Origin: an uncultured bacterium
Lineage (GTDB): Bacteria > Bdellovibrionota_B > Oligoflexia > CAYFLR01
Reading direction: 5' to 3'
NCBI GenBank assembly: GCA_964544765.1
Contig: CAZJDM010000001.1
Location: forward strand, 1,851 to 65,850
Length of the DNA stretch: 64,000 bases
Shown: positions 3,002-49,324 of the stretch, one piece after another
How the letters are laid out: every line of letters begins with the position of its first letter
How positions within the stretch are numbered: the first letter of the stretch is position 1
Translations under genes and position numbers: made by a program
The notes under the pieces: generated by a model
The model's database searches: none
Seen by the model: only the letters and a program-made list of their open reading frames with translations
Told to the model about the DNA's origin: nothing

Positions 3002-4222
3002 CTAAAAACTATATCCCAAAGACACTCCAATATTTGAATACTTCAAAGATGAAACATACTGACTACCCGAAGCCACTGCCATATATTTGGTCCATTCATA
3101 TTTTGCCAATAGGTGTATACTTCTAAATTCCGCTCCTAACGAGGCAAACCATGTCAACATATGAAAAGAATCATAATTTAGCTTAACATTTCTATCATCT
3201 ACCAATACTGAGTCAGGTAAAACTTTCCCGTTACTTTGTAAGGGCACTCCTCCTCCCAATCGAAACCATAACACTTTATACAATTTCATATGCTCCTCAA
3301 GCTTCAAAGTCAAAAATTGAAACCCTAGTGATCGAATATCCCCATCTCCATCCAAGATATTAAAAGAATGAAAATTAACTAAATCGAGCTTTAATAAAGA
3401 TTCTATGTATAAATTAGGACTAAAGGTAATGGGAATTCTAAAGTTTAATCCACTCTCAACCCAATCAGTAATGGCCGCCTCGGATATGCCTTCATTGGTT
3501 TCAGCACTTTCACTATGAGGTGTTAAGGTATAATTATTATAAATCCTATAATAGGAAATAGAAAAACCCAAAACTTCCCAAATAAACTTTCTAGTAAAAA
3601 AAGACAAGGGATATAAAACAGATGATATTCCATACCGAAATACTGAATTTGATTTAATATCCTGATCATATCTCTGAACTATATTACTGGAAGGATCTCC
3701 GCCTGTCATCTCTGGCATAACTATATTGATCCTATTAGCAACCAATCGAGACATAGAGCTATCCATAAAAAAAAGAGCTCTGGGAGCCTCAGATTTTATT
3801 TTAGGAATGTAGGCTCGTTCCACCATTGCTCCGAAAACAGCAACCGCAGATTTTAAAATACCAGGTCTTTTTCTGATATATTTTCTATTTGTTAGTTTTG
3901 AAATATTAGCAATGCTGTGTTGAGGAAAAACCTTCTTTACAATCAATATAGCCAATCTTACGCGACGTCCTGCGTCAAATCCCTTTCTATCATACAACAA
4001 AACTCTCTCCCCGACCATCATACCATCATCGCTTCCAAGAGATACGTAGTAACTTTTCCCTCTAACTTTAATTATTTTACCAACTGCCGCATATAGATTA
4101 CCGGTTTTATTTAGGACCAAAAATAAAAAGAAAGAATAAAACAAAATCTTCCATATTAAAGGTTTAATCATACTCAACACCCTTTTACTGATTAATCCAT
4201 ATTTAATTAACCCGATGTGCAA
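3002..4222 (-). CDS. putative outer-membrane beta-barrel protein with an N-terminal periplasmic domain (paralog of the 4271..6079 product)
   Basis: N-terminal hydrophobic segment. A soluble domain (GKIIKVRGKSYYVSLGSDDGMMVGERVLLY) similar to the middle domain of the upstream gene. The C-terminal region ends in the aromatic terminal signature ...SLGYSF, typical of OM barrels. Confidence 0.45.
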   Translation of the reverse strand: MHIGLIKYGLISKRVLSMIKPLIWKILFYSFFLFLVLNKTGNLYAAVGKIIKVRGKSYYVSLGSDDGMMVGERVLLYDRKGFDAGRRVRLAILIVKKVFPQHSIANISKLTNRKYIRKRPGILKSAVAVFGAMVERAYIPKIKSEAPRALFFMDSSMSRLVANRINIVMPEMTGGDPSSNIVQRYDQDIKSNSVFRYGISSVLYPLSFFTRKFIWEVLGFSISYYRIYNNYTLTPHSESAETNEGISEAAITDWVESGLNFRIPITFSPNLYIESLLKLDLVNFHSFNILDGDGDIRSLGFQFLTLKLEEHMKLYKVLWFRLGGGVPLQSNGKVLPDSVLVDDRNVKLNYDSFHMLTWFASLGAEFRSIHLLAKYEWTKYMAVASGSQYVSSLKYSNIGVSLGYSF

Positions 4223-4270
4223 GTTTCACTTACACCCCGCTGTTTAAGCGTTGAATTATAATTTATCTAC

Positions 4271-6079
4271 TCAAAATGAATAGGATATACCTAAATGAAT
4301 CAAAACCATTTGCTCATATATTGATACATTGGTCATATTTAACTGGGTATTACCTGGAAAAAGATAATCGTAAATAGTCCATTCCGCACCTACTTTTAGA
4401 TCCAACACACTCTTATATTTACTCAATACCCCTAAATAATACTTTGAATAACTTGACCCATCTGAACTAAAATCGCCATATAATTTATCTGTCGCGTTCC
4501 AGAGAACTTTTTTATTAATAGCTGCTATAATGCCTAAATCATCTAATCCGGCAAACAACCTCACGTAAAGAGGTATTTGAATTCCACAACCTATATCCAA
4601 TGACATAAGTTCTCTACTAGAAACTTGTTTCGCATTATTTATATGAACACTCTCAGACGACTTGGCCTTCGATTCTACACTTTCTAAAAAAACCCCCACC
4701 TTAGGAACTATTTCAAGACCCCTACCTCCCCCAAATAAATCTAAATTGAAGATAGATTCTCCCCATATACCCATACTTTGGTAGCCAACTGATACATCGG
4801 TAGATACAGAAGGATTTTTTTTCTCCAACTTCACTGAAGATTTACCATATGAATAATCCGCTCCAATCCGAACATTAGGTAAAATATCATAATAGCCATT
4901 TATCTTAAAGAAATCCAAAAAGGCATAAGGGGATGATATTACAGCTTTATATTTACTAGATTTAATCTGGAAAAAATACAAAAATGGACCCACACTGGCT
5001 CCAATATTTATTTTTCTACTACTTGTTGGATAGGAAACTTCTTTCTCTGCTGTTATTCTAGAGTCTACCCGACTTATCCCAATCGGATGCTCTCGACTAG
5101 GAGCGATCTTAGCATGACTTCCAGTTTCTTCTGAAGGAAATTTGTCTTTCTTTTTTTGGATATATTCTCTTTCTTTTGGTTTTGGTTGTGATTTTGGTAA
5201 AAAATCTCCCCTTCTTTCAACATTACTTAAGTCCTTAGGAGAGCTTAAATCTCTTTTTAATTTTTCTCGAGTAATCTTTTTATCAAAATATTTTTGAAAA
5301 TCCAATCCATGCAATAATACCTTATCACCCACTTGGATTTTTTTCCCCTCATCTAAAGAAATAACAACACCTAACGACACCTCATCTTTAAGATCAACTA
5401 ACTTTACCGTACCTAATTCGATTTTCTGTACATCCATTAATTCACCCATACTAGGGCTTCTGATAGCATCCTCAATCCGTACTAATTTTAAGAAATCTCC
5501 CTTTTTCAATCTTAAAGTAGAACCCGCATCAATAGTAATAAACTTTCCATTAACACTTGTAACAGAGGCCTGATATGGTAATAAATTCAAAATTCTATAA
5601 TACAAATCCTTAACCATAAGCTCTACATCATACTTTAATTTCCCCTTATCTTCCGACAAAGTGAGTAATTCATTTTCAAAAGCAACTGTTCGCCCATTAC
5701 GGGCATCAACCAAACGTAAAGCAACAACGATCCTTCCATCATTTAATAAAGCACTGTCCAAGATAAATAAGGCATCAATGTCATAATTTTGGATCAGATG
5801 CTTTAATGTCTCATTATCAAGAGATACCTTTTTACTTTTGATAGATTTAACGTAAGAAGACACTACCTCTTTAGACACCAAACGAAACCTCTGTGACAAT
5901 AATATTTGTGCATTTAAAGCATCAAACAACATCTTTTTAACTTTTAAGGGAACCTCTAACCTTGGATTATTAATCGAAGCCACTATTTTATAAGTTCCAA
6001 TCGCTTTTATTACTGATGATTGAGTCAAAAGGAAAATAACTAAAATTAAAGTGTAACAAATCTTAACTAGCTTTTTCAT
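4271..6079 (-). CDS. putative secreted multi-domain outer-membrane protein with a CsgG/FlgO/TolB-N-like domain
   Basis: Signal peptide MKKLVKICYTLILVIFLLTQSSVIKA. The N-domain pattern YKIVASINNP...LFDALNAQILLSQRFRLVSKE...IDALFILDSALLNDGRIVVALRLVDARNGRTV matches the CsgG/FlgO-type lipoprotein ring fold. It is followed by a small beta-rich domain, a K/P/E-rich linker, and a C-terminal barrel ending ...LGISYSF. Confidence 0.45.
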   Translation of the reverse strand: MKKLVKICYTLILVIFLLTQSSVIKAIGTYKIVASINNPRLEVPLKVKKMLFDALNAQILLSQRFRLVSKEVVSSYVKSIKSKKVSLDNETLKHLIQNYDIDALFILDSALLNDGRIVVALRLVDARNGRTVAFENELLTLSEDKGKLKYDVELMVKDLYYRILNLLPYQASVTSVNGKFITIDAGSTLRLKKGDFLKLVRIEDAIRSPSMGELMDVQKIELGTVKLVDLKDEVSLGVVISLDEGKKIQVGDKVLLHGLDFQKYFDKKITREKLKRDLSSPKDLSNVERRGDFLPKSQPKPKEREYIQKKKDKFPSEETGSHAKIAPSREHPIGISRVDSRITAEKEVSYPTSSRKINIGASVGPFLYFFQIKSSKYKAVISSPYAFLDFFKINGYYDILPNVRIGADYSYGKSSVKLEKKNPSVSTDVSVGYQSMGIWGESIFNLDLFGGGRGLEIVPKVGVFLESVESKAKSSESVHINNAKQVSSRELMSLDIGCGIQIPLYVRLFAGLDDLGIIAAINKKVLWNATDKLYGDFSSDGSSYSKYYLGVLSKYKSVLDLKVGAEWTIYDYLFPGNTQLNMTNVSIYEQMVLIHLGISYSF

Positions 6080-6548
6080 AATGAAACTCTATGTTATTAC
6101 ATAATAAATAATTAACTTAATACTTTATTTTTTATTATTATAAAAACTTGTTATAGGTATCTCAAATTGCTCTTGAACAATAGAACTAGCAGATAGAAAT
6201 ACTTCAGATACTTTATTGGAAAATAAGTCTATTTGATCAATAGAAAGCACATGGTGATGAAAATAAGACAATATTCTCTTATCATGAACCTTTACAGAAC
6301 ATAAAACCATTACAATAAAAATGATACTTCCCAAAGAAAGGATCTTTTGAATAAGTCCAAAAACTAACCCAACCATAATTTTCCTTTCTTCTCCCGATTA
6401 ACAAGGATTAGAACAGTTAATGATTAATATCTGCATAAAAAAACACCATTTAGCCTGATTATTAATATTATGAAGGGTTTTGGCAATATTTGCAATCTTA
6501 AATTATTTTTAGCCACTACCAGTGCATGATTTTCCAGGAAGTTGTTGG

Positions 6549-8960
6549 TTATACGACTCTTTTCGATTTATAATCGTTTTTAACTTGCTGGGCCTTGTCT
6601 AAAAAATGACCCTTAAACACTCCATTATAACCAACCAGACATTCTCTAAATATCTGCTCTATACTATCGACAAAAACGATCCTAACCAATTTCATTATTT
6701 CCTTTTCAATTTTTTCTATATCTTTTTTGTTTTTTGCGGGAAGAATCACTGTTTTTATACCGTACCTCAACGCAGCTAAAATCTTTTCTTTCACCCCTCC
6801 TATTGGCAGAATTCGCCCATGTAGAGTAATTTCCCCTGTCATAGCAATATCTGCTCTAATCGGAAGTCCTGTTAGAGCCGAAACCAAGGAAATACACATA
6901 GATACCCCCGCAGAGGGTCCATCTTTTGGAATTGCAGCAGCGGGAACATGTACATGAAAATCACCATTGTAGAAAATGTTTTCATCTAATTCCATACCAT
7001 GTGCTTTAGAACGTACATAACTTAGAGCTGTCAAAATAGATTCCTTCATTACATCGCCCAAGTGTCCGGTCAGCTCTATTTTACCCTTTCCCTTCATTAC
7101 TTTACTTTCAATATATATTACATCACCACCAATTTTTGTCCAAGCAAGTCCCGTTACCACACCCACCTTAGCTTTCTGAGTGTCTCTCATGTCCATCTCA
7201 TATTGATATGGACCTAATAATTCCCGAGCATCCTTAATCTTTAAGGTCCTCTTAAAAGACTCGCCGCTAACATGTTTTCTGGCAATTTTACGAAATAAAG
7301 AGGCAATTCTTTGTTCCAAACCTCTTAATCCTGTTTCTAAAGTATAATGTCTTATTGTAGTTAAAATGGCTTCTCTGGATAAAGTAACAGGTACATCTTG
7401 CAATCCACACAACTTCAGTTGTTTCGGCAACAAATATTTAATGGCAATTTCTACTTTTTCAATTTCCGAATAACCTGATAACTCCAAGATCTCCATCCTA
7501 TCTCTTAATGGAGCTGGAATATCCTCTAAAGAATTAGCGTTGGCCAAAAACAACACGTTGGATAAATCCACTTCCAAGTTTATATAGTTATCCATAAAAG
7601 AATTATTTTGTTCTGGATCTAACACTTCTAATAAAGATGAGGTTGGATCTCCTCTATAATCAGAAGCAAGTTTGTCAATTTCATCCAGCATAATAACCGG
7701 ATTCATGGTCTTTGCCCTTTTTAATGACTGAATTATTCGCCCAGGCATAGATCCTATGTAAGTACGTCTATGTCCACGAATTTCAGCGTCATCTTTTATT
7801 CCTCCTAAGGCAATTCTTTCAAATTTCCTACCCATTGCACGTGCAATTGACTTACCTAAAGAAGTTTTACCTACTCCTGGTGCCCCAACCAAACATAAAA
7901 TAGGTCCTTTTAATGAATTAGTGAGCTTTTTAACCGCTAAAAACTCAATAATTCGTTCTTTCACATTCAAAATGCCATAATGATCCTCATCTAATACTTC
8001 TGACACCCGCTTTAGTTCAATATTATCCTGGCTCTTTTTATCCCAAGGGATATCTATAAGCCACTCAGTGTAATTTCTCACAACTGTATATTCTGCAGCA
8101 TCTTGAGGAATTCTGGATAATTTGGCAAACTGATTATTAATTTCCTTTTTTACATAGGGGGGAAGATTAATTCCCTCAACTCTTTTACGCAAGCTTTCTA
8201 AATCATCTTCAGGTATACCTGACTCACCTAGCTCTCCACGAATGATCCGCATTTGTTCCCGAAGAAAATATTCTCTTTGACTATTGGACATTTCATCTTT
8301 TACTTTGTTCTGTATATCTAGTTGTAAATGAAGAATTTCAATCTCGTTTGCTAACAACTTATCAATACGTAAAAGACGCTGATACGAATCATTACTTGTC
8401 AATAGAGCCTGAGCCTCTTCAATTTCAAAGCCCATATGAGAAGCGATAATATCTGAAAGCCTTCCTGGATCTGAAACATCTTCGATTATCATCATCATAT
8501 CTGGAGATATGAATCTACCCAGTGATATTAACGTTTCTAGCTTATCTCTAACACCCTTCATAAGAGACTTAATAACTGTCTTATCTTGTGAGGATTGGAC
8601 ATCTATAATAGGTTCAAAAAATACATGTGGTATATGTTCATCTACAACAGATATTATAATTCCTTTGGCCAAACCTTGTAATAAAACTTTAGTTCGTCCA
8701 TCGGGCATTTGCACGGTTCGTACAACTGAAACAATAGACCCTGATGGATAATAGGATGAAGATTCTCCCATTTCTCTATTAACACCTATAAATAGAAGTT
8801 TATTTTGAGAAAGGGCATAATTTAATATTTCAGTTTGAAACTCGTCTGATAAAAAAATGGGTATAACTATATTGGGATAGACAATTACTTCATCCAAAAC
8901 TAAAAAAGGTAATTTATTACCTAATTCTTCAAAAGAAGAATTCACAACGACTCCAATCAA
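6549..8960 (-). CDS. lon: ATP-dependent Lon protease
   Basis: 803 aa. LON N-domain, Walker A GPPGVGKTS, and a protease domain with catalytic PKDGPSAG. Confidence 0.9.
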   Translation of the reverse strand: MIGVVVNSSFEELGNKLPFLVLDEVIVYPNIVIPIFLSDEFQTEILNYALSQNKLLFIGVNREMGESSSYYPSGSIVSVVRTVQMPDGRTKVLLQGLAKGIIISVVDEHIPHVFFEPIIDVQSSQDKTVIKSLMKGVRDKLETLISLGRFISPDMMMIIEDVSDPGRLSDIIASHMGFEIEEAQALLTSNDSYQRLLRIDKLLANEIEILHLQLDIQNKVKDEMSNSQREYFLREQMRIIRGELGESGIPEDDLESLRKRVEGINLPPYVKKEINNQFAKLSRIPQDAAEYTVVRNYTEWLIDIPWDKKSQDNIELKRVSEVLDEDHYGILNVKERIIEFLAVKKLTNSLKGPILCLVGAPGVGKTSLGKSIARAMGRKFERIALGGIKDDAEIRGHRRTYIGSMPGRIIQSLKRAKTMNPVIMLDEIDKLASDYRGDPTSSLLEVLDPEQNNSFMDNYINLEVDLSNVLFLANANSLEDIPAPLRDRMEILELSGYSEIEKVEIAIKYLLPKQLKLCGLQDVPVTLSREAILTTIRHYTLETGLRGLEQRIASLFRKIARKHVSGESFKRTLKIKDARELLGPYQYEMDMRDTQKAKVGVVTGLAWTKIGGDVIYIESKVMKGKGKIELTGHLGDVMKESILTALSYVRSKAHGMELDENIFYNGDFHVHVPAAAIPKDGPSAGVSMCISLVSALTGLPIRADIAMTGEITLHGRILPIGGVKEKILAALRYGIKTVILPAKNKKDIEKIEKEIMKLVRIVFVDSIEQIFRECLVGYNGVFKGHFLDKAQQVKNDYKSKRVV

Positions 8961-17253: not shown

Positions 17254-19668
17254 TTAGTATAAATTTTCCCGCCTAGCTCTAACTATAAATGGTATACTCA
17301 ACAATAGTATCATCATTAACAACGATCCTTTATCAGCAGAATTACTCTCCTGAATTGAGCAACTTCCACTATCTGGAGCTTTGCGATTAGCGCTGGTTGG
17401 TGGCTTTGCGGTTACTTTCTTACGGAAAGGTTTATTACTATCACGTAGGCTTTTTGCTTGACGACCTTGTTTTTTAATTCTACTTTGCATTGCTTCTACG
17501 GAACTTCCTGCCGGAACACCTAAAGGATTCCCCTTCTTGCCCCCCTTAGTTCCAGCGACCATATCTCTTGACCTATCTTGGACTAACTTAGGATTTCGTT
17601 TAGGAGCCTTACTTCCTGTTGAGATTCCTCCATTTGCTGAAGTCGAGCTTGAAGCTGAAGAAGTACCTGCACCTGCTTTAGTACCTGCACCTGCTTTAGT
17701 ACCTGCACCTGCTTTAGTACCTGCACCTGCCTTAGTACCTGTGCCTGCCTTAGTACCTGCTCCTGTTCCAGCACCAATTGATCCTGTATTATACTGACTA
17801 TCATAAGTCTTTATCTGTCTCTGAGCTTTTGAACCAATAGTATTAGCTTTACACTTTTGTACAGTCTCTGAATCCCATCCAGGTTGTTTAACACATGGAG
17901 TCAGGGCTACACACTGAAAGGAGAAATTACTACTTGCACTAGGTAAATTAATATCAGGGCAATATTTTTTCTGAATACGACTAACCCCACAAACCGAAGG
18001 AATATTTAACCTTTTCCAAAGGTTGCATTGATACCTAGCTATTTCCTGGGCTATCGCACTTTTTTCTGCCGCTTCTAATGAGGTAAGCACTACTTCTAAA
18101 GCATAATCCGCAAACACCAAAAGGTGTTGTTCGTTTTCCATCAAATTAAACCCCAATCCCATAATGGCACCATCGGTAGTACTGTCTAGTTTTGCAAAAA
18201 GAGAGCCTTTGGCTTGATTACTTCCAGGAATCTGCCTGGAATCATAACCCCCTGTATCTGGGGCAATTGGAATTAAGGCCTTAGCGTCTAAATTATCTTG
18301 ATGGTATATTATAACATTATCCACTAAAGCATTTTGACTATCATGTGAAACATATTTGGCAATATAACCTAATACATACGGTTGAGGTAAGTTGGTTATC
18401 ATTGGAATTAAGGCAACCGGTCCAAATGAAGGCCTGGTTGTTTGCTGTCTGCTATCTAGTAGTATTGCCATTGATTGAAAATTAGGCATCTCTCTTAAAG
18501 TCCAACCAGATGGATCATTTTCACTAAAGATCCCACTAAGTATTGATTTAATTCCCAGTTCCGTAAATCCAACACCTTCTTTAAATACTCCCCTAAGTTT
18601 TTTGCCTTCATAGTTTTCACCTTGTACCTTTGGAGCTAACTCATCTGACATGTTATCAAATATATCTTTAACTTCTTTGGACAATTTTCGATGAATGATA
18701 TATTTATCAGTTAAAAAATAGGATATTTGAGAAAAAGCGGTATAATAATCTTCCAAATCCAATTCTCCAGAAGCAGTTGAAGTACCAGAAGCAGTTGAAG
18801 TACCAGAAGCAGTTGAAGTACCAGAAGCAGTTGGAATACCAGAAGTAGCTGAAACATCAGAAGTAGCTGGAACATTGGTCGAAACCAAATTAGCTTCGGC
18901 TAATGTCCTAATTTGATTGGAATTCACTAAGGCACTAACAGTCGGCCCACTATCACTCTCAATGGCCTCACCCCAAGATGGATAGAGCTCAAAAGGATCA
19001 TTGCCATATAGGTCACCGGATGACGACTGATCTGTTGAATCGTCTGCTGGTTCTTCTGATTCATCTGAATCACTCTCATTACGACCTTCATCACCACCAA
19101 TAGTACTTTCAGAAACATTTGAATCTGAATCCACAGCAAGTGTATTACTATCGTTAACTGAGGCTTGATCGGTTGACTCAATAGCCCACTGATCTACGAA
19201 AGCTATTAAATCTCGATCTTCTATTTGTGCCATAAAAGCTTCTGGATGCTCTCCCACGGTTCCAGAAGTAATATGACCTTCTGCTTTCTCTTTGGCCCAT
19301 AAATAATGCCGGCATACCAAACCGAAATCACCGGTTATTTGATCCTCACCACAACTAACATCCCAAGTCCTCAAGTACCTTATGCAATTTTCACTGCTTA
19401 ATTTTGTTGTATCATTTTCATTAGTACCACAAAAAAGAGCCAAGCCATCAAGATATGCCTGTAATGCTTTTTTCTCCGCCTCAACAAGGGGTTCTCTTGA
19501 AACCACCCAGTTTAAGAAAAGCAAGCCTTTTCTAGCTGATGGTTTATCTGATAGACTTCTAGCACTCGAATCTAAGAATTTTACTTGTGATGTCCCAAGT
19601 CTACATCCCGACACTACCAAAAGACCAGATAATATAAATAATAAACTTATTAATTGTAATATACGCAT
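17254..19668 (-). CDS. large repeat-containing surface lipoprotein
   Basis: Signal peptide plus lipobox LLVVSGC. Acidic S/D/E-rich region. Tandem GTSTAS and KAGAGT hexapeptide repeats. The C-terminal tail CS..KGSLLMMILLLSIPFIVRARREN is a hydrophobic helix followed by basic residues. Confidence 0.55.
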   Translation of the reverse strand: MRILQLISLLFILSGLLVVSGCRLGTSQVKFLDSSARSLSDKPSARKGLLFLNWVVSREPLVEAEKKALQAYLDGLALFCGTNENDTTKLSSENCIRYLRTWDVSCGEDQITGDFGLVCRHYLWAKEKAEGHITSGTVGEHPEAFMAQIEDRDLIAFVDQWAIESTDQASVNDSNTLAVDSDSNVSESTIGGDEGRNESDSDESEEPADDSTDQSSSGDLYGNDPFELYPSWGEAIESDSGPTVSALVNSNQIRTLAEANLVSTNVPATSDVSATSGIPTASGTSTASGTSTASGTSTASGELDLEDYYTAFSQISYFLTDKYIIHRKLSKEVKDIFDNMSDELAPKVQGENYEGKKLRGVFKEGVGFTELGIKSILSGIFSENDPSGWTLREMPNFQSMAILLDSRQQTTRPSFGPVALIPMITNLPQPYVLGYIAKYVSHDSQNALVDNVIIYHQDNLDAKALIPIAPDTGGYDSRQIPGSNQAKGSLFAKLDSTTDGAIMGLGFNLMENEQHLLVFADYALEVVLTSLEAAEKSAIAQEIARYQCNLWKRLNIPSVCGVSRIQKKYCPDINLPSASSNFSFQCVALTPCVKQPGWDSETVQKCKANTIGSKAQRQIKTYDSQYNTGSIGAGTGAGTKAGTGTKAGAGTKAGAGTKAGAGTKAGAGTSSASSSTSANGGISTGSKAPKRNPKLVQDRSRDMVAGTKGGKKGNPLGVPAGSSVEAMQSRIKKQGRQAKSLRDSNKPFRKKVTAKPPTSANRKAPDSGSCSIQESNSADKGSLLMMILLLSIPFIVRARRENLY
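17663..17770. repeat. 18-bp tandem repeat (unit gtacctgcacctgcttta), about 5.5 copies, in-frame within the lipoprotein gene
   Basis: Three perfect copies are followed by progressively degenerate copies. Encodes (KAGAGT)n on the minus strand. Confidence 0.8.
18767..18874. repeat. 18-bp tandem repeat (unit ccagaagcagttgaagta), 3 perfect plus about 3 degenerate copies, in-frame within the same gene
   Basis: Encodes (GTSTAS)n on the minus strand. Confidence 0.8.
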
Positions 19669-20441: not shown

Positions 20442-21740
20442 TTACCGCTTTAAGTTGACAACCTCCTCAATCATACTGTCAGTGGTTGTAATACAACGAG
20501 AATTGGCCTGAAACCCCCTTTGAGACATAATCATTTTAACAAACTCATTGGCCAAATCTACATTTGACTCTTCTAAGGAAGATGAGAAAACACTTCCCCG
20601 ATTTCCAGATTGAGCTAAACCAACACTGGGAGATCCAGACTCTACTGTCGCGTAAAAAGAAGCCATTCCAGCCTTTTTCAACCCATTTATGTTGTTAAAT
20701 GACGCCAGAGACAAACTACATAATTGGCGCTCAATTCCGTTAGAAAACACACCTCTCATAACGCCATCTAGATCAATCTTCATGGTCTTTAAGTTTCCTG
20801 TCTCATAACCATCTTGACTATGAGTAACCACTGTAGATGGAGTACTAGCGGAAGATGTTTCCCCAAGACCATCACCACCTTCTTCTAAAATATTTGTTCC
20901 AAAATCAAAGACTATTTTTTGTTCTTGTTCAACTCCCCCCGAAAAATTAGCCATAATATCATCATGCTCCTCGTTCAAAAGCTTTCCTTCCTGATCAAAA
21001 AATATCCTTCCAGAAGCAATCACCGAAAAAACACCTTTTTCTCCACCTTCTATTTCCTGACCTTCAACTCCAGCATACCAAGACCATATATTTTCGGTTC
21101 CCGGTTTTTTAGAAAAATATACATTAGTCTCATGAGGTGTGCCGGCCGAATCAAAAACAGTAACTGAAGTGGAAAAACTACTTGTGTTTTGTGGTCTATT
21201 AGAATTGAATTCTTCAAACGAGTCAGACCGTAAATCCAAATTAACTATCATTTTCACTTGTTTGGTTTTATTGGGTGGCAAATTGGTCTTTATTACCCTA
21301 ACATCGGTCAATTTAGGAATCAAGCGCCCTGAAGGAGATGCCATATAACCTTGGACGCGGCCATTATTACTGTCTACCATATAACCGTCTTTATCAAACT
21401 GAAAGGTTCCTTGCCTTGTATATAAAAGCCCTCCTGTTGAAGAAGAGGCCTTACTTTTTACAACAAAAAACCCGTCTCCCTGAACAGCGAGATCTGTTAA
21501 TCCTGACGTCCCAGTCACTCCTCCCTGAGAGAAGATAGTAGAAGTATTTCTTAAACGCGTACCTCGACCAATCTGAGCACCTCCACCCATATCCATCGAT
21601 AACATATCCTCGAATTCAGCCCGATCATACTTAAAACCTCTAGTATTGGAATTTGCTATATTATTAGCAACAATTCCCATACTGTCAGCATTGGCGTTTA
21701 ATCCAGTTACGCCACTATATAATGCTTGCGATATGGCCAT
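20442..21740 (-). CDS. flgE: flagellar hook protein FlgE
   Basis: N-terminal MAISQALYSGVTGLNANADSMGIVANNIANSNTRGFK and C-terminal GFQANSRCITTTDSMIEEVVNLKR are the conserved flagellar rod/hook termini. 432 aa. Confidence 0.85.
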   Translation of the reverse strand: MAISQALYSGVTGLNANADSMGIVANNIANSNTRGFKYDRAEFEDMLSMDMGGGAQIGRGTRLRNTSTIFSQGGVTGTSGLTDLAVQGDGFFVVKSKASSSTGGLLYTRQGTFQFDKDGYMVDSNNGRVQGYMASPSGRLIPKLTDVRVIKTNLPPNKTKQVKMIVNLDLRSDSFEEFNSNRPQNTSSFSTSVTVFDSAGTPHETNVYFSKKPGTENIWSWYAGVEGQEIEGGEKGVFSVIASGRIFFDQEGKLLNEEHDDIMANFSGGVEQEQKIVFDFGTNILEEGGDGLGETSSASTPSTVVTHSQDGYETGNLKTMKIDLDGVMRGVFSNGIERQLCSLSLASFNNINGLKKAGMASFYATVESGSPSVGLAQSGNRGSVFSSSLEESNVDLANEFVKMIMSQRGFQANSRCITTTDSMIEEVVNLKR

Positions 21741-21766
21741 AATTACTCCCTATTTTAAGTTAATAT

Positions 21767-22666
21767 TTATTCAAGATTATTCTCTTTTGATTTATTGAAA
21801 GTACTATTAATAGCTCTTACCGCATCTACATCCACCATACCAAGGTCAGTAATAAGAACTGGTACATCTCCCTGCATACGTACACCGGTAACTCGATTGA
21901 CTGTAGCAATTTTTACTGGTACGGGCCTAGAATTAATATCCACCCCCTCGACTTCATAAAAATACACACCCTTACTAGCTTTAGTTCCGTCCAATTTTCT
22001 GCCATCCCAAGTAAATGTATTTAAACCCTCTTTTTGTTTTTCTAACGATAGCTCACCAGTTTTTTGTCCATGACTATCCCTAACAACTACCTTGCCCCTT
22101 GTAATGGGTCTATCTATCTCAAATTGACCCCTTCCTTTTGTTTTTCCATCAAATTGAAACCGTCCCCCGTCCGTCTCAACAGATTTGCCAATAAAATTTA
22201 CTAGACTATTGAAATTACCCTTATCGTTGGATTGAATTAAATTATTAATTCCTTTACCTAACTCCATTAATTGTTCCAAGCTTGTAAACTGGGCCATTTG
22301 TTGAGCTAATTCCACATTTTCTATTGGTTTGGTGGGATCTTGTACCTGCAATTGAGTAATAAATAATTTCATAAAATCGTCTTTATCTAGTTGGGTTTTA
22401 TGATTCTTTCCCGAATTAAGTACTTTCTTTTGTTCCATTACTTCAAACAACTCCTTTCCAGTTGCTGTCTGTTCCTTGATTGCTCTCTGGCGCTTAGCTT
22501 CAATGGAAGATCGATGAACCAACTGTTCAAAATCAATAGGATCTGATTTCTGATTGGTATAGTTACCCGATGTTTTTGGTGTAGTTTTAAAGTTTTTTAC
22601 ACTTTCTAAGGCATTTGACTTAATCTTATCAGAAGTTAAAACTTGTGAAGTGGATTGTATATTCAA
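21767..22666 (-). CDS. flgD: flagellar hook capping/assembly protein FlgD
   Basis: The conserved FlgD segment VELAQQMAQFTSLEQLMELGKGINNL, plus a C-terminal beta domain. Lies between fliK and flgE. Confidence 0.7.
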   Translation of the reverse strand: MNIQSTSQVLTSDKIKSNALESVKNFKTTPKTSGNYTNQKSDPIDFEQLVHRSSIEAKRQRAIKEQTATGKELFEVMEQKKVLNSGKNHKTQLDKDDFMKLFITQLQVQDPTKPIENVELAQQMAQFTSLEQLMELGKGINNLIQSNDKGNFNSLVNFIGKSVETDGGRFQFDGKTKGRGQFEIDRPITRGKVVVRDSHGQKTGELSLEKQKEGLNTFTWDGRKLDGTKASKGVYFYEVEGVDINSRPVPVKIATVNRVTGVRMQGDVPVLITDLGMVDVDAVRAINSTFNKSKENNLE

Positions 22667-22696
22667 TTTAATCTCCTTAGTAGTATTGATAAATAT

Positions 22697-24625
22697 TTAA
22701 GCACGAACACTCACCCGATCTCTAGAAATAACAGACCGATAATGTTGTTCTGGTCGTACACTGCTAGTTCTATCTGTCAGTACCCGCTGATTATTTTTTT
22801 CAACGGAATCATCAGTCTCATCATAAATAAAAGAACGCGCTTCTTTTTCCTGGTTCCTGTCAAAACCTTGATTGGCCCTTTCAAAGTTATCTGCTGTAGA
22901 CTCGTTTTCAATTTTTACATTTATACTTTTAAATTGAAGATTTTGATTATGCAAAGATTCCTTCAGTCTTCCCATACCTTCTTCTAGCATTTTCTGCACT
23001 TCTTTGGACTCAGTAACAACGGCCAAAGAAACTTCCTTACCATCAACATCCACATTAAAAATTACTTTGCCTAGGTGATCTGGTTTTAATTGTATTTTAG
23101 CTGCTCCACCACCTGATTTAATATTATATTCAGCTTTCTCAACTATCTTATCAACCATAGCCTTGATATTCTCAGCCCTGTCACCTTTCAACAACACCTC
23201 ATCTTGTTGGAAAACCGCGCTTTCTGTCTTGTTACTAGGGAAATTAGCGGTTTCAGCTCCCATATTAATATCACTCAACTGGCTAGGTTCATGGATAACT
23301 TTACCGGTGTTTTCTTTATCAACAACTGTAGCTCTAAAATCATTCTTATCGGACTTAGCCCATTTAGCTGCTATTTGTTCTGGCGTAACCTCTTTATTGG
23401 TAGACAAACCATTTACGCTCACCATTTTTTCACTAGTTTTAGTCTGATTAGCCACCGAGCCTGCTTTTGATTCATTTGCGGTTGGTGTTAGAAATAAAGA
23501 TGAATCAGTATTATTGCTTCTTACATTATTGAGCGGTTTATCTATCAAAGAATGACCGTCTTGTTTTTTAACCAGAGAGGCCACCTGCATAATATCGGTT
23601 GAGTTTTTAGTAAAGATATCAGTTGGTGCTTTCATCTGTTCATTAGAAGAAACTTTGAGAGAATGGCCCTTTGTTAATTTAATAAATGAAGTTCTATCAT
23701 GTTGTTCTTGATTTAAAGATTGTAGAGAATGACCTCCATCTTGATGCCGAATATCTGAAAGATCACTAATTAGATATTCATTACCTAAACTACCCTTTTT
23801 ATTAGAACTTCCCTCTTTCTGATAAGAACCTTTAATCAAGGGATCCTGCATAGATTTAGTTCCCCGAAGTAAATCACTTTGATGATTTTTTTCATTTTGC
23901 TTAATATTTTCAGTTCCTTTTTGAGACAGATTGGGAGCTACTATCGTAGAAGACTTTTTTTGTTGTATTTTTTCTGCCCTAACCAGATAATCCGAAAGAT
24001 CGCCCATTTTAACACTGTCTTTCAAAATTCTTAGCTCACTTTGAATAAGCTCGTGATCAAAACCCATTTGATCCAAGAGCTGTTTCATTGTAATAGATTG
24101 ATTTGGAGCAATACCAAAAGCATCAATTATTTCTGTTTCTTGATATTTGTCAAACCCTATCTCCTTTAAAATATCTGCTGGGAGTTTTTCTTCACTTAAA
24201 ACCTGATTAACCCCTTTATCCATTATAGATTTGATCAACGAATTTCTAGTAATGACTTCTACAATGCTATGTTTGAAGTCACTTTTATTACTTGTGATCA
24301 TTGGTTGTTTGGTTTTATTCATGGTTTCTGTATCAAAACTAAAAGCTCCTGTTAAAATAGACAGAAGAGGGGAGTCTTGAATTAAAAGTTGTTTTTTTTC
24401 TTCTAAATTGTTTTCCTTTTTTAATACTTTTTTTTTCCACCCCATATTAATTTTTTTATCTTCTAACGTAGGTGGTTTTTTTTTATTTGTTCTGGCCAAA
24501 ACCTTTTCAAATGAAGAGTTTTTATCTACCTTTTTCCCCGTTTTTTTTACATTTGACATGTCTTTAGTATTATCAACAATATTTCCTTTAGTTGAAGAAG
24601 GTAGTAATAAATTACTTTGCGCCAT
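22697..24625 (-). CDS. fliK: flagellar hook-length control protein FliK
   Basis: Long disordered N-terminal region. C-terminal FliK domain (IQLKPDHLGKVIFNVDVDGKEVSLAVV...). Position between ylxF and flgD. Confidence 0.7.
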   Translation of the reverse strand: MAQSNLLLPSSTKGNIVDNTKDMSNVKKTGKKVDKNSSFEKVLARTNKKKPPTLEDKKINMGWKKKVLKKENNLEEKKQLLIQDSPLLSILTGAFSFDTETMNKTKQPMITSNKSDFKHSIVEVITRNSLIKSIMDKGVNQVLSEEKLPADILKEIGFDKYQETEIIDAFGIAPNQSITMKQLLDQMGFDHELIQSELRILKDSVKMGDLSDYLVRAEKIQQKKSSTIVAPNLSQKGTENIKQNEKNHQSDLLRGTKSMQDPLIKGSYQKEGSSNKKGSLGNEYLISDLSDIRHQDGGHSLQSLNQEQHDRTSFIKLTKGHSLKVSSNEQMKAPTDIFTKNSTDIMQVASLVKKQDGHSLIDKPLNNVRSNNTDSSLFLTPTANESKAGSVANQTKTSEKMVSVNGLSTNKEVTPEQIAAKWAKSDKNDFRATVVDKENTGKVIHEPSQLSDINMGAETANFPSNKTESAVFQQDEVLLKGDRAENIKAMVDKIVEKAEYNIKSGGGAAKIQLKPDHLGKVIFNVDVDGKEVSLAVVTESKEVQKMLEEGMGRLKESLHNQNLQFKSINVKIENESTADNFERANQGFDRNQEKEARSFIYDETDDSVEKNNQRVLTDRTSSVRPEQHYRSVISRDRVSVRA

Positions 24626-24849
24626 AATGAATCCATATAAAATTTATTTGAAAATTAAACTCACGGGATAAATTAGATGCAACATCTATACCAAAATTTT
24701 TTCCCAATTTGTCTTTCAATTTTTTTTTCTAAAGTTCCAAAAAACAGAGCCGAACAGAAGATAAGATGAAAAATAGGTTTTCTTTTAAAAGACTTAAAGA
24801 ATGGAATTTTTTTCCGCTTAACCAGGAAAAAAATACTCATTACTCATAT

Positions 24850-25563
24850 TTATTTAATATTTGAAATCGCCTTGAGTCCTTTTTTCTTTTTTAGCTTGGC
24901 TAAAGCCTCGGAATACTCAACTACTTTATCTGTGTTCATTTTTTCAAAAAGCTTAGAAACAAATTTTTCTTTTAAATGAAGTAATAATTGAACCGCTAGA
25001 CCCTTGTCCATTCTTTCAAAAGCAGGGCCCGCTCTTTTTACATCCATTTTACTATACATAAGAACCAATTTTTCTAGTCTTTTCTTTTTGATTTTCTTCT
25101 CTTGTTCAATTGATTTTTTATATTCTCTATAAATCTTTTCTAACTTATTTATTTTGGCAATAATTTCTTTTTCCATCTTTTTGATATCATTCTCACGTTC
25201 TAATAATTGCCTTTCTTTCTCAACCAGCTCCATTTGTTTTTTCTTCAGTTCCGACACCGAAGGGGTATCCTTCTCTTTAGACTTGATATCTTTCCCAGGT
25301 TTGCTTACTTGTGGAATATATTTTTTTCTGGCACTCTCTTTTTGTTTGCTCATTTCTACATCTAAGGCTCTATTTTTATCTTGGTCGTATTCTTCAACCT
25401 CCTTAGAAGCTTCTTCTTTCTCATTTATACTTTTTTTCCCAGCGGACCCGCTCTTTTTTTCACTATTTTTGGCAAATAGAGAGTTTAAATCCCATGATGT
25501 TCTTTTTAAATAGACCGGCAACAAAAACAAAAAAGCAATTAAGAAAAACCATCTAACCGACAT
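24850..25563 (-). CDS. YlxF/FlbB-like flagellar operon protein (MgtE-N-like C-terminal domain)
   Basis: Single N-terminal TM, K/E coiled-coil, and a C-terminal AVQLLLHLKEKFVSKLFEKMNTDKVVEYSEALAKL. Sits between fliJ and fliK exactly where ylxF sits in the Bacillus subtilis fla/che operon. The start is taken at the internal MSVRWFF. Confidence 0.45.
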   Translation of the reverse strand: MSVRWFFLIAFLFLLPVYLKRTSWDLNSLFAKNSEKKSGSAGKKSINEKEEASKEVEEYDQDKNRALDVEMSKQKESARKKYIPQVSKPGKDIKSKEKDTPSVSELKKKQMELVEKERQLLERENDIKKMEKEIIAKINKLEKIYREYKKSIEQEKKIKKKRLEKLVLMYSKMDVKRAGPAFERMDKGLAVQLLLHLKEKFVSKLFEKMNTDKVVEYSEALAKLKKKKGLKAISNIK

Positions 25564-25996
25564 TTTTATGGAACCCTCCTTTAAAAGTAGAAAAGTCATC
25601 CATCTGCTTATTTTCAATTTTTCTTTCTTCTAATAAATATTTTTTATATTCTTTGTCTCGTAACTCATCCATCAGTTTTTGCTCTTGCTTAGCCTTAACA
25701 ATTAAATGTTCTTTTAAAGCAACATCATTTTTGGCAGCATTAATTAGCACTAACTGATCCATAATATCTTTTTTCAAACTATCAAGATAGACATTATAAA
25801 TTTTCTCTTTTTCATAAAATCCATCAACTAAAGCTTGCATCAACTGATTTTTCCTTTCAACATACTTATCGCGTAAATTAAATAATACCTCAGTTTCTTC
25901 TCTAACTTTTCGATACAAAGCCTCCAACTCTTTTAAAAGGATATTTACCCTTTCTTCTTTATATTTGCGTATAGGTTCTAAAGCAAATTTAAACAT
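25553..25996 (-). CDS. fliJ: flagellar export protein FliJ
   Basis: 147-aa coiled-coil protein immediately downstream of fliI. Confidence 0.55.
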   Translation of the reverse strand: MFKFALEPIRKYKEERVNILLKELEALYRKVREETEVLFNLRDKYVERKNQLMQALVDGFYEKEKIYNVYLDSLKKDIMDQLVLINAAKNDVALKEHLIVKAKQEQKLMDELRDKEYKKYLLEERKIENKQMDDFSTFKGGFHKNVG

Positions 25997-25999
25997 TTA

Positions 26000-27340
26000 T
26001 TATTGTGTTTCTTGATTATTATTAATTAAATCACCAATCTGCTTAACGCTTTCCTCTATAGAACATTTTTCATTAATATCCTGGCGTAAAAATGATAGCA
26101 GACCCGACCTTTTCGATATTGATTCATCAATATCCTGATCACTACCTCTTTGATAGGCGCCAATTTCGATCATCATCTTAGATCTTTCATATACAGAATA
26201 GAAATGTTTGGCTTTCATTGAAAGATTCCAATGTTCTTTATCGATAACATCAATCATTAATCGAGATAGACTGGCCTCTATATCAATTGCGGGATAAACA
26301 CCCTGCTGAGCAAGTTCTCTACTTAGTACAATATGGCCATCCAACGTACCTCTTACCGTATCCGCTACTGGATCTGTTAAATCATCCTGATCAACCAATA
26401 CGGTATATATTCCTGTAATAGCCCCCTTTCCTTTACATGTACCTACCCTTTCTAATAACTTGGGAATAGAAGAAAAAACAGACGGTGTATAACCTTTTGA
26501 GGTTGGAGGTTCTCCTATTGCTAAACCAATTTCTCGCTGTGCATGAGCAAATCGAGTTATAGAATCCATCATTAACAAAACATTCTTTCCCCTATCGCGA
26601 AAATATTCAGCAATGGCAGTCGCCAGATTAGCTCCCCTTATTCGTAAAAGAGGGGATTTTTCAGAAGACACTACCACCAAGACACTCTTGGCCAATCCTT
26701 CCGGGCCAAGATCTTTTTCAATAAACTCCCTAACTTCTCGTCCTCGTTCTCCAATAAGGCCAATAACATTAATATCTGCTTTCACATTTCTAGCCACCAT
26801 ACCAAGTAGAACAGATTTTCCTACTCCACTGCCTGCCATTAGAGCTACTCGCTGACCCTTTCCACAAGTAAAAAGACCATTAATAGCTCGAATTCCTAAG
26901 TCTATAGAATTTTTAATTTGCTTTCTATCAACCGGACTAGGTGGATCATTATATAAAGGGAAATTCTCCAGTTTTTCTGGCTCACCCTTACCATCTAAAA
27001 TATTGCCCATCCCATCCACAATTCTCCCTAAAAGTGAATCGCCAACTTTGATTAAAGCTCCTTCACCCCTTATTCGAATACTACTATTGGTGCTAACCCC
27101 TACCAGAGACTCATACGGCGCTAATAAAACTTTATCTCCCCTAAACCCTACCACCTCTGACATTAATTTGGAATTTGTCTCTTTGGATATAACATCACAA
27201 ATGTTTCCCATTCTTGCCCCTGGTAAGTACCCTTCTATAACGGTACCTATTATCTGGCACACTCTACCCTGAATGGCAAAGGATTCAACCTCTTGTATTT
27301 TTTTGTCAAAAGCTTCTGGATTAAATATTCTCATATTCAT
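26000..27340 (-). CDS. fliI: flagellum-specific ATPase FliI
   Basis: Walker A GSGVGKS, Walker B, and the F1/T3SS-ATPase fold. 446 aa. Confidence 0.9.
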   Translation of the reverse strand: MNMRIFNPEAFDKKIQEVESFAIQGRVCQIIGTVIEGYLPGARMGNICDVISKETNSKLMSEVVGFRGDKVLLAPYESLVGVSTNSSIRIRGEGALIKVGDSLLGRIVDGMGNILDGKGEPEKLENFPLYNDPPSPVDRKQIKNSIDLGIRAINGLFTCGKGQRVALMAGSGVGKSVLLGMVARNVKADINVIGLIGERGREVREFIEKDLGPEGLAKSVLVVVSSEKSPLLRIRGANLATAIAEYFRDRGKNVLLMMDSITRFAHAQREIGLAIGEPPTSKGYTPSVFSSIPKLLERVGTCKGKGAITGIYTVLVDQDDLTDPVADTVRGTLDGHIVLSRELAQQGVYPAIDIEASLSRLMIDVIDKEHWNLSMKAKHFYSVYERSKMMIEIGAYQRGSDQDIDESISKRSGLLSFLRQDINEKCSIEESVKQIGDLINNNQETQ

Positions 27341-27361
27341 AAATATTAATATTAGTTTTTG

Positions 27362-28702
27362 TTAAGAGGCTTTCTTATCTGTTAAAGAAAGATCTAATTG
27401 TTCAACCATGTGATCTATTTGCCTATCAACACTTGAATCAATTACATTCATTTCAGTTTCAATTATAAAATTCGATTTATTGATCCCTGGATCCTTTATC
27501 AATTCCGTTAGTTCCAAATCAGGAAATTTTTCTTTTAAATTGGGAACCAGATTTTGAAAATACTCATAATCATCAGGGTTAATCTTTACCTTGATTCTAT
27601 CTTTTTTGGCAGTCTTTTCTATCACCTCATAAAAAATCTGCTTCAAAATATCTTGATCCAAAGATATCTCTCTATGAATTACCCTCTTAGCTGTTTTTTC
27701 TATGATTAATTTAAAATTTTGTTCTAAAGAAGAGTATACTTTACGCTTAACCTCTTCCAACTCTTGCAACAGTTCTCCTACTTTGGTGAACAAATCATTT
27801 ACCCTAGCTTGAACACTAATAAAACCCTTTTCTTCACCAGACAACCATCCTTGATTAAAACCTTCTTTTTTGGCCGCCTCTATTTCAACCATATCATTGT
27901 CATCTAAATATTTTTTTTGCTTCTCATCTTCAATATCAACAAAACCTTGCTCAATAGATTCAGACTCAAAAATACTTGTTTTCTTTAAATCAGTATCAAC
28001 CGATTCTATTGGTGCCTTTTTTGGTTTTTCAGCGCTTTCCCCCTCCCTCACATCATCAATGTCCTCCTTAGACCTGGTATCAACTGATTTAATATCCGGG
28101 CCATCAAGGTCAACATCCTCAGGTTGGCCCTCATATCCTGTTTTTTTTCCATTCTCTTCGGATTCTTCTTCCAAACCAGAGTTTTTCATGGCCTCATGAA
28201 ACAATTTACTACCCACATCAACTTTTTCCACAGTGCTATCATAATTAAACTTCATATCCTCCATCGAGCGAGTTTTGTCCTCTTTTTTACTACCCCCCTT
28301 TTCACCATCTTGTGTTTTTTCCCGTTCTCCCCCCCCTTCCTCAGCCTCCTCTTCTTCCATTAATACCTGAGCATTTTCATCGTCATCATCTCCTAAATTA
28401 TAAAATCCTTCTCTTCGCCTTTTAATCTCTTGTTCTATATTTTTAACTTCATCAGTAAAGTCCTCTAATTTAATTCGCTTTCCTTCAGAGGAAAATGATT
28501 TCTCACAATACTCAGAAGCGTCTTTAGACAACTTTTTTAGGACTTTTTCTCCATGTTTATTTTTCCTTAATAAGTTACGAAATCGGTTATCAAAAGGAAC
28601 TTCATCAAAAGAATTAATCTCTGAAAAAGAATACTCGTCTACCTTAAATTTATGCTGATCCTTTTTCTTAATAACCATCATGACTTTATGTATCCCTTTC
28701 AT
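27362..28702 (-). CDS. fliH: flagellar assembly protein FliH with a long acidic N-terminal expansion
   Basis: The C-terminal ~150 aa are FliH-like (LEEVKRKVYSSLEQNFKLIIEKTAKRVIHREISLDQD). Position between fliG and fliI. The N-terminal ~280 aa are D/E/K-rich. Confidence 0.6.
   Translation of the reverse strand: MKGIHKVMMVIKKKDQHKFKVDEYSFSEINSFDEVPFDNRFRNLLRKNKHGEKVLKKLSKDASEYCEKSFSSEGKRIKLEDFTDEVKNIEQEIKRRREGFYNLGDDDDENAQVLMEEEEAEEGGGEREKTQDGEKGGSKKEDKTRSMEDMKFNYDSTVEKVDVGSKLFHEAMKNSGLEEESEENGKKTGYEGQPEDVDLDGPDIKSVDTRSKEDIDDVREGESAEKPKKAPIESVDTDLKKTSIFESESIEQGFVDIEDEKQKKYLDDNDMVEIEAAKKEGFNQGWLSGEEKGFISVQARVNDLFTKVGELLQELEEVKRKVYSSLEQNFKLIIEKTAKRVIHREISLDQDILKQIFYEVIEKTAKKDRIKVKINPDDYEYFQNLVPNLKEKFPDLELTELIKDPGINKSNFIIETEMNVIDSSVDRQIDHMVEQLDLSLTDKKAS
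28329..28336. repeat. homopolymeric C8 (G8 on the fliH coding strand)
   Basis: ctcc cccccc ttcc read directly. Encodes EGGGE in FliH. Confidence 0.9.
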
Positions 28703-28709
28703 TTAATAA

Positions 28710-29699: not shown

Positions 29700-29739
29700 T
29701 GCTCCCCCTTATGTATCTATATTTTAATACTATACCTTC

Positions 29740-47219: not shown

Positions 47220-47247
47220 TGCGGACTTCGTCCGCTAGCCGCATTAT
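47220..47247 (+). terminator. GC-rich inverted repeat (gcggac-ttc-gtccgc nested within aatgcgg...ccgcatt) immediately after the uvrD stop
   Basis: Read directly. Unusual GC content for this sequence. No trailing U-tract, so terminator function is uncertain. Confidence 0.3.
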
Positions 47248-49129: not shown

Positions 49130-49233
49130 CAAACCGGATCTCCCATTAAATTCGAAAGCTTCGCAATCAAATTATAGTGGGAGTTTATCTATTTTAGTTA
49201 AAGAAGCGATGTTATTACCAGCTTTTTATCGAA

Positions 49234-49249: not shown

Positions 49250-49324
49250 TTTTCAAATTAATCTGATCTGTTTAATTGACACACAACATTAGTCTGTTAT
49301 GATAACCATTAATACAATAATATA

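Follow-up and report, generated by a model that had tools for sequence, protein, structure and literature searches.

A predicted outer-membrane barrel protein with a FlgT/TsaP-type periplasmic module in a conserved three-gene unit

Two consecutive open reading frames lie on the minus strand of the window, i.e. the complete 64,000-nucleotide stretch of DNA analysed here, at 4271-6079 and 3002-4222, as the original prediction had described. The first encodes a large protein of 602 residues (4271-6079, stop codon included), supported by the ORF list, orthologues and an AlphaFold model. For the second, comparison with the N-termini of the orthologues makes the ATG at 4171 a more likely start than the TTG upstream of it at 4222, and the small protein then has 389 residues (3002-4171, stop codon included). 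The pair lies between an LpxH-like gene (2214-2981, top NCBIfam match LpxH with an E-value of 2.4e-25, under the cutoff) and lon (6549-8960). Both flanks had been named correctly, but a conserved ORF of 83 amino acids on the minus strand (6125-6376), identified from the ORF list, orthologues and hydrophobicity, had been missed. It is the first member of a conserved three-gene unit. The window comes from an uncultured, flagellated, low-GC bacterium, and a flagellar cluster begins within it, 14 kb from the pair, which lies outside that cluster.

Orthologues with 37-41% identity and the same gene order are found in two other genomes (L001 and L002), i.e. the order 83-aa gene, large gene, small gene is kept in three genomes. 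Because both sequence and gene order are conserved, chance ORFs can be ruled out. In L012, from a related lineage, the small gene is intact while the large gene next to it is reduced to a 3' remnant, so the two proteins may not be obligate partners. A 78-aa ORF upstream of the small-protein orthologue P0004 was considered as a counterpart of the 83-aa gene and rejected, as it is a large-gene remnant. A scan of a genome collection gave matches in one species only, a MAG, and a first metagenome scan gave none. In the window, the Rfam search found no RNA family and the promoter and terminator scan gave results at chance level.

The 83-aa protein has a single N-terminal hydrophobic helix, at about residues 4-27 according to hydrophobicity, and the orthologue alignment shows a conserved motif, KxxDxRxxxYFH. 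In L001 and L002 its gene is located directly upstream of the large gene and overlaps the start of the latter by 4 nt. No Pfam family was found for this protein, and matches to an HMM built for it are confined to the window, L001 and L002/L003.

According to the AlphaFold model (mean pLDDT 83), the large protein is confidently predicted to consist of a signal peptide, a domain with the TolB-N/CsgG/LpoB fold, a beta-roll of the FlgT_C/TsaP type, a disordered linker and a 10-stranded barrel, in this order. The Sec signal peptide, residues 1-26 (6002-6079, minus strand, as are all features below), is predicted from sequence and hydrophobicity with a likely cleavage site between MKKLVKICYTLILVIFLLTQSSVIKA and IG. 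It ends in SSVIKA; a lipobox motif is missing ahead of the predicted cleavage site, and no cysteine follows that site. Beyond the signal peptide, the model shows just two globular domains in the periplasm. The first, an alpha/beta domain at residues 27-166 (5582-6001), has the fold of TolB-N, FlgT_M, CsgG, PelC and LpoB; profile and structure searches thus agree with the CsgG/FlgO/TolB-N pattern that had been noticed in this region. At the level of family models the agreement does not hold, as the CsgG model (PF03783) has no match and the FlgO model (PF17680) reaches at best an E-value of 0.06, in two of three orthologues.

The second domain, a beta-roll at residues 167-258 (5306-5581), is modelled with a pLDDT of 90-98 and is assigned to the type of FlgT_C and the TsaP C-domains by Pfam, profile, HMM and model. 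The Pfam FlgT_C model matches all three orthologues, each time sub-threshold (18.6 bits against a cutoff of 27 bits, E-value 0.0026), and a profile of the middle domain built from the wider family finds TsaP (3jc8, E-value 1.2e-6; 6ve2, 5.7e-5) and FlgT (4e-3). When the two domains are compared as one module, the top structural match is the Vibrio H-ring protein FlgT (Foldseek E-value 5e-9). FlgT_N has no Pfam match in the large protein and its orthologues, the peptidoglycan-binding domains OmpA_C and LysM were not found in them either, and all their Pfam matches are below the gathering thresholds. The shallow profile of three large-protein sequences gave no match when searched against the sequences of the PDB.

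A helix (residues 260-279) and then a disordered linker rich in K, S, R, E and P occupy 5015-5305, as judged from pLDDT, DSSP and composition. The linker has about 65-90 residues, with a pLDDT below 50 at residues 288-352, and among the orthologues it is poorly conserved and varies in length. The remaining part, residues 356-602 (4274-5014), is modelled as a 10-stranded outer-membrane beta-barrel that ends in the beta-signal HLGISYSF; the barrel columns of the underlying alignment are without support from sequence statistics. The features expected of an outer-membrane protein are present in the model: a signal peptide, a closed antiparallel barrel with an even number of strands and a C-terminal aromatic beta-signal. 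In a structure search, the nearest structures to the barrel are OpcA, OmpT/Pla and a Legionella major outer-membrane protein.

The small protein has a predicted signal peptide at residues 1-28 (4088-4171), placed by hydrophobicity, with a probable cleavage site between MIKPLIWKILFYSFFLFLVLNKTGNLYA and AVGK; the hydrophobic N-terminus is conserved in its orthologues (P0003, P0004 and L001:9790-10971, 37-40% identity). A FlgT_C-like beta-roll follows at residues 29-109 (3845-4087), and then a segment conserved in the orthologue alignments at residues 110-165 (3677-3844; SAVAVFGAM...AP...NR.N..MPE), for which no family or PDB match was found. Residues 166-389 (3005-3676) may form a second outer-membrane barrel, ending in GVSLGYSF. 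We infer this barrel from the signal peptide and the C-terminal beta-signal, which is aromatic in three of four orthologues. The alternating hydrophobicity of the region is 0.97, compared with 0.94 in the modelled barrel of the large protein, but this score cannot separate barrel from non-barrel. Searches of this region found no match in Pfam, outer-membrane protein families or the PDB, a PDB search with the small-protein profile returned only noise, and Pfam detected no LysM domain in the small protein.

The peptide strings quoted earlier, including the C-termini IHLGISYSF and VSLGYSF, are all present, and the barrel ends proposed from them agree with the 10-stranded model for the large protein; for the small one the proposal goes no further than the two signals. 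The idea that the two genes are paralogues overall is not supported: BLASTP found no similarity between the proteins, full-length hhalign gives a probability of 1%, and the barrel regions are unrelated by sequence (hhalign probability 0.3-0.6%). The shared beta-rich module does hold up, at the superfamily level only. Residues 28-109 of the small family align to a 118-sequence profile of the middle domain over 82-83 columns with a probability of 75% (P-value 2.6e-5, score 36.2). None of 150 column shuffles reached this score (mean 12.3, standard deviation 2.2, maximum 19.7). Using hmmsearch, the middle domain finds three small-protein orthologues with E-values of 0.003-0.04, and noise starts at an E-value of 2. 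Against the large protein's own three-sequence profile, hhalign gives the beta-roll a probability of only 0.7%. Judged by sequence comparison, the beta-roll is the sole part common to both proteins.

Profile comparisons show that the large protein belongs, by its N-terminal and middle domains, to a widespread unannotated family with at least 179 sequence clusters (representatives at an E-value of 1e-3 or below). Family members have about 500-620 residues and combine a TolB-N-like domain, a beta-roll, a linker and a barrel. Family profiles built without the window clade match the large protein with E-values of 7.8e-15 (N-terminal domain) and 2.7e-26 (middle domain), while the corresponding barrel profile has no match to the barrel of the window. 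Neither Pfam nor NCBIfam has a model for this family, and the literature that was searched contains no paper on it.

In the main branch of the family, the gene is located directly after SpoVR, in a PrkA-DUF444-SpoVR operon, in all 16 informative contexts, and in none of these are flagellar or pilus genes the neighbours. The large gene of the window, and likewise that of L001 and L002, is instead preceded by lon and the 83-aa gene, i.e. the window clade has lost the SpoVR neighbourhood. A convergent metallophosphatase gene downstream is common to the window, L009, L018 and L025. The family protein has 32-41% identity, compared with 76-90% for its PrkA, DUF444 and SpoVR neighbours. Conservation is highest in the periplasmic domains (E-values of 1e-15 to 1e-26) and lowest in the barrel. 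We infer that the family was originally linked to the PrkA-YeaH-SpoVR operon and not to the flagellum.

The reading of function that we favour, which we hold to have a reasonable chance but somewhat less than an even one, is that the proteins make up a periplasmic scaffold or tether anchored in the outer membrane, and not a secretion pore like that of CsgG. The barrels would take the place of the lipid anchors that FlgO and FlgP supply to the H-ring, and the flexible linker would allow the two-domain module of the large protein to extend down into the periplasm. There, the TolB-N-like domains and the beta-roll would dock on another structure of the envelope, comparable to the docking of FlgT on the LP-ring of the flagellum and of TsaP on the secretin PilQ. 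A possible target is the flagellar basal body, as the flagellar cluster is 14 kb away. Counting against such a scaffold are the position of the locus outside that cluster, the operon context of the main branch, the absence of FlgT_N and the sub-threshold Pfam matches.

The same parts could also be arranged as an LpoB-like adaptor, in which the barrel anchors in the outer membrane and the linker takes the TolB-N/LpoB-fold domain across the peptidoglycan, where it would bind a partner in the inner membrane or periplasm and regulate it. For the main branch, such an adaptor would be the arm of the PrkA-YeaH-SpoVR starvation module on the envelope side; for the lineage of the window, the 83-aa membrane protein is a conceivable partner. 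We regard this as rather doubtful: the top structural match is the pairing of FlgT_M with FlgT_C and not LpoB, and the window clade has left the SpoVR neighbourhood. PrkA, DUF444 and SpoVR are not known to carry signal peptides, so a direct contact with the adaptor is not obvious. Alternatively, the barrel itself could be the functional part, as an OpcA-like adhesin, an OmpT/Pla-like protease or a small channel, with a periplasmic module that serves just to stabilise it or attach it to the cell wall, like the C-terminal domain of OmpA. The structures nearest to the barrel fit such an ordinary surface protein, as do the fast evolution relative to the operon neighbours, expected of a surface-exposed protein, and the low conservation of the barrel. 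However, the identity to OpcA and OmpT is just 13%, Pfam detects neither OmpA_C nor LysM, and the periplasmic domains are the best conserved part, an indication that selection acts on the function of the periplasmic module; we consider this alternative improbable. A secretion channel made from an N-terminal CsgG-fold ring and the barrel is very improbable. In the CsgG channel the transmembrane hairpins are contributed by the CsgG fold itself, while here the membrane part is, in the monomer model, a separate and narrow 10-stranded barrel beyond a disordered linker. The lack of a CsgG Pfam match and of a lipobox also speaks against secretion, and no substrate or amyloid genes were seen near the pair in the neighbourhoods of the window, L001 and L002.

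A broader picture, which we think unlikely as a whole, combines the scaffold with the operon context. The PrkA-YeaH-SpoVR (YeaG-YeaH-YcgB) starvation/dormancy module would have, in this family, an outer-membrane arm not recognised so far, where a barrel-anchored FlgT-like scaffold couples the cytoplasmic kinase system to envelope remodelling. The lineage of the window would have uncoupled it from the operon and rebuilt it as the 83-aa protein, the large barrel protein and a second barrel protein with a beta-roll, and these three parts together might build a ring or a tether on one of the machines of the envelope. If true, it would be a new, lipid-independent way to anchor FlgT/TsaP-type scaffolds.

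Modules of the FlgT/TsaP type are known from flagellar and pilus rings, which they decorate either in soluble form or bound to peptidoglycan, whereas here such a module appears to be covalently tethered to its own outer-membrane barrel. The placement after SpoVR in the main branch offers a concrete candidate for an envelope partner of the PrkA/YeaG-YeaH-SpoVR/YcgB system. For annotation, three "hypothetical proteins" gain a defined domain architecture. FlgT of the Vibrio H-ring (PDB 3W1E, 8Z5N) shares with the large protein, at the fold level, a TolB-N-like domain followed by a beta-roll (FlgT_M, PF16539, and FlgT_C, PF16538). However, FlgT is soluble in the periplasm, has an FlgT_N domain (PF16548) but no barrel, and is encoded with flagellar genes, while the large protein lacks FlgT_N, has its module linked through a disordered linker to a predicted 10-stranded barrel and is located at a non-flagellar locus. 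TsaP, associated with the type IVa pilus secretin (PDB 3JC8 chain Ta, 6VE2 chain O), is the top sequence-profile match of the middle domain. The beta-rolls of TsaP, its CI and CII domains, resemble FlgT_C and decorate a ring in the outer membrane, and the small protein carries one such beta-roll. TsaP combines an N-terminal LysM with two beta-rolls, without a TolB-N-like domain or a barrel, and LysM is absent from both proteins studied here. A LysM-containing ORF elsewhere in the window (40879-41967) was considered as a TsaP-like relative and rejected, as the middle-domain HMM does not match it.

The N-terminal domain of TolB has the same fold as that of the large protein, but the six-bladed beta-propeller of TolB is absent and replaced by linker and barrel. 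LpoB, CsgG, PelC, GNA1162 and LptE are related to this domain by fold. The large protein lacks the lipid anchor of LpoB, CsgG and PelC, its anchor most likely being the C-terminal barrel, and it has no transmembrane hairpins of the CsgG type. The match to the FlgO model is far under threshold, and the large protein is without a lipobox. Its barrel has 13-14% identity to OpcA (2VDF), the OmpT/Pla omptins and the Legionella Dot/Icm-associated porin I (9NH1), which, unlike the large protein, have no periplasmic N-terminal module.

Two consecutive minus-strand genes had been described between an LpxH-like gene and lon, and both ORFs are found, at 4271-6079 (602 aa, the large protein) and at 3002-4222, where orthologue N-termini favour a start at ATG 4171, giving a small protein of 389 aa. 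The peptide strings quoted for them are all present in the window. An 83-aa ORF (6125-6376, minus strand) with one N-terminal hydrophobic helix, overlooked in the original prediction, lies between lon and the large gene. The locus is flanked by Lon (6549-8960) and by a metallophosphatase gene (2214-2981) whose top NCBIfam match is LpxH (E 2.4e-25), at 89 bits against an equivalog cutoff of 134. Judging from sequence and hydrophobicity, both the large and the small protein carry plausible N-terminal Sec signal peptides that lack a lipobox. Both terminate in aromatic beta-signals, and HLGISYSF of the large protein follows the canonical polar-x-G-x-x-aromatic-x-aromatic pattern.

A search of 5.8 billion proteins returned, for the large protein, a single orthologue (P0001, 38% identical) and, for the small protein, three matches, one of them the window's own sequence. 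The gene order is kept in a Logan contig (L001) and in MAG GCA_964343805.1 (L002/L003): MutS, a Fis-like HTH protein, a radical-SAM HemN-like protein, GrpE and Lon are followed by a 75-83-aa, a ~600-aa and a ~390-aa protein, and then by the convergent metallophosphatase, Tmk, HolB, PSP1 and TatD. In L001 and L002, the 83-aa gene runs 4 nt into the large gene. The small protein is called too short in L001, where an extension of the ORF further upstream adds a signal peptide. Only these genomes are matched by HMMs of the small and the 83-aa proteins, and a single species representative among 185,579 contains the three-gene unit; GC is low in the lineage (33-42%). Given the shared gene order and the restricted HMM matches, the three genes are a conserved unit limited to a rarely sampled lineage, and probably an operon. 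Sequence comparison indicates that all three ORFs are real genes.

In a fourth lineage of this narrow clade (L012/L013), the large gene is reduced to its last ~110 codons upstream of an intact small gene, and the two adjoin FUR-FeoA-FeoB. The remnant (P0024; L012:5191-5559 and L013:2-295, HMM positions 482-592, E 1e-26) is either a truncation by rearrangement or part of a chimeric contig. Separately, Lon of the MAG is split (L002:3385-5840) into ORFs of 615 aa, for which no Pfam hit is recorded, and 203 aa, with Lon_C; the cause is a frameshift, pseudogene formation or an assembly error.

When 1.84 billion representatives were searched exhaustively with a profile, the large protein fell into a family of 179 proteins (E <= 1e-3) with signal peptides and aromatic C-termini. 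Most are 500-620 aa long and match the N-terminal and middle regions of the query (roughly residues 90-270) at equivalent positions. The AlphaFold model, obtained with 118 of the 179 proteins in the alignment, has a mean pLDDT of 83 and consists of an alpha/beta domain (residues 26-166), a beta domain (171-255), a helix (260-279), a disordered K/S/R/E/P-rich linker (288-352, pLDDT < 50) and a beta-barrel (357-601). When the model is compared with the PDB by Foldseek, FlgT is the top match (3w1e, E 5e-9, 283 columns), followed by the Vibrio LPHT-ring entry 8z5n (E 7e-9). At the sequence level, the family profile matches TsaP in the middle domain (E 1.2e-6 and 5.7e-5), the TolB N-domain (E 9e-4) and FlgT (E 4e-3). 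The CsgG/FlgO/TolB-N pattern noticed at the N-terminus is therefore supported as a fold class by the TolB and FlgT matches. Sub-threshold Pfam matches recur among the orthologues: FlgT_C in 3 of 3, and OMP_b-brl, DUF6340 and FlgO in 2 of 3 each. Profiles built without the window clade recover the N-terminal (E 7.8e-15) and middle (E 2.7e-26) domains and miss the barrel region. The predicted barrel is therefore backed by the model, the beta-signal and the weak OMP matches, not by family homology.

Behind its signal peptide, the small protein has a beta-roll of FlgT_C type (residues 29-109), then a conserved stretch of 55 residues with no fold assigned, and a C-terminal region of ~225 residues with alternating hydrophobicity, ending in GYSF. 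Three of the four orthologues have an aromatic residue at the C-terminus. Matches are absent from Pfam, NCBIfam and PDB sequences. An aromatic-terminal barrel had been proposed for both proteins; it holds for the large one, and this sequence pattern is consistent with a putative barrel in the small one.

BLASTP detects no similarity between the two proteins (best E 0.67), a full-length profile-profile comparison gives a probability of 1%, and the C-terminal regions are unrelated (0.3-0.6%). Over 82 columns, residues 28-109 of the small family align with the profile built for the middle domain of the wider family (hhalign probability 75%, P 2.6e-5), with a score of 36.2 vs a mean of 12.3 (sd 2.2, maximum 19.7) for 150 column-shuffled profiles. 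The result is the same after the window clade is taken out of the middle-domain profile; the neighbour's own profile, of three sequences, gives no match (0.7%). These comparisons and the shuffle control therefore indicate that the beta-rich module common to the two proteins is a genuine, homologous type of domain, yet that the genes are not the paralogous pair originally suggested, in the sense of duplication.

Neither Pfam nor NCBIfam gives an assignment for any of the family members tested, the source names are "hypothetical protein" or none, and no fusion of a FlgT-like module with a barrel is described in the literature searched, in line with the earlier remark that the fusion is not a described family. 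In the main branch, the gene is located directly after SpoVR, often overlapping it, in all 16 informative contexts (five by exact protein look-up and 11 of 11 JGI loci with upstream sequence); the SpoVR-linked loci are L004-L007, L009, L011, L014-L018, L020, L021 and L023-L026. The arrangement is release factor, PrkA, DUF444 (YeaH), SpoVR and then the family gene. Identity between these loci is 76-90% for PrkA, DUF444 and SpoVR and only 32-41% for the barrel protein. Two family members from other branches are located elsewhere. In the window clade, Lon and the 83-aa gene are upstream of the large gene in place of SpoVR. The small partner is absent from distant loci and is a gain of this clade. 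A convergent metallophosphatase, homologous to the 2214-2981 gene, lies downstream of the family gene in L009, L018 and L025, as it does in the window, which hints at positional orthology. The chief interest of the locus is that it exposes a sizeable unnamed family strictly linked to the poorly understood PrkA-YeaH-SpoVR operon.

Elsewhere in the window, a minus-strand flagellar cluster (20442-31368) encodes FlgE, FlgD, FliK, an unannotated 255-aa ORF (24850-25617), FliI, FliH, FliG and FliF; after it come genes for a sigma-54 activator (32628-33953) and a sigma-70-family factor (34665-35546). Between a GT2 glycosyltransferase and this cluster is an 804-aa ORF (17254-19668, minus strand) with no Pfam or NCBIfam match. 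A 204-aa ORF without family assignment (35659-36273), possibly encoding a small outer-membrane protein, is the top non-self match of the barrel HMM, at an insignificant E of 0.06-0.35. In a 362-aa ORF (40879-41967), residues 169-228 form an internal LysM domain, with no further family match; a TsaP-like identity was rejected, as the FlgT_C-like domain HMM gives no match. The grouping of gidA (mnmG), parA and parB at 47219-51149, after glmS and uvrD, suggests that this part of the chromosome is close to the origin. Over 1-12 kb the GC skew is strongly negative, and no Rfam family, tRNA included, reaches its gathering score in 1-64000.

FlgT encircles the LP-rings and acts as a scaffold for the T-ring, and the H-ring is attached to the outer membrane through the lipoproteins FlgO and FlgP. 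On the PilQ secretin, spokes are built by the FlgT_C-like beta-rolls of TsaP. LpoB, PelC and CsgG, lipoproteins with the TolB-N fold, act as adaptors or rings just beneath the outer membrane. Guided by the behaviour of these parts, the most economical reading is a periplasmic scaffold or tether anchored in the outer membrane, in which the barrel would replace a lipid anchor and a linker of 65-90 residues would give the periplasmic module reach. Since the organism is flagellated, the flagellar base is a candidate docking target; neither the window locus nor the SpoVR-linked context of the family is flagellar. Rival readings are a reach-through adaptor resembling LpoB, which might be the envelope arm of the PrkA-YeaH-SpoVR module, and a surface protein in which the barrel would be the functional part. 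The secretion role raised in the original prediction, as a CsgG-like ring, is unlikely: the membrane part is modelled as a separate narrow barrel, and both a CsgG model match and a lipobox are absent. CsgG membership is not upheld. The original observation is largely confirmed and its interpretation partly supported.

The locus is a new variant assembled from known parts. By the published borders of FlgT (N 24-109, M 121-287, C 292-377; bioRxiv 10.64898/2025.12.02.691832), the periplasmic half of the large protein corresponds to FlgT_M plus FlgT_C, without FlgT_N.
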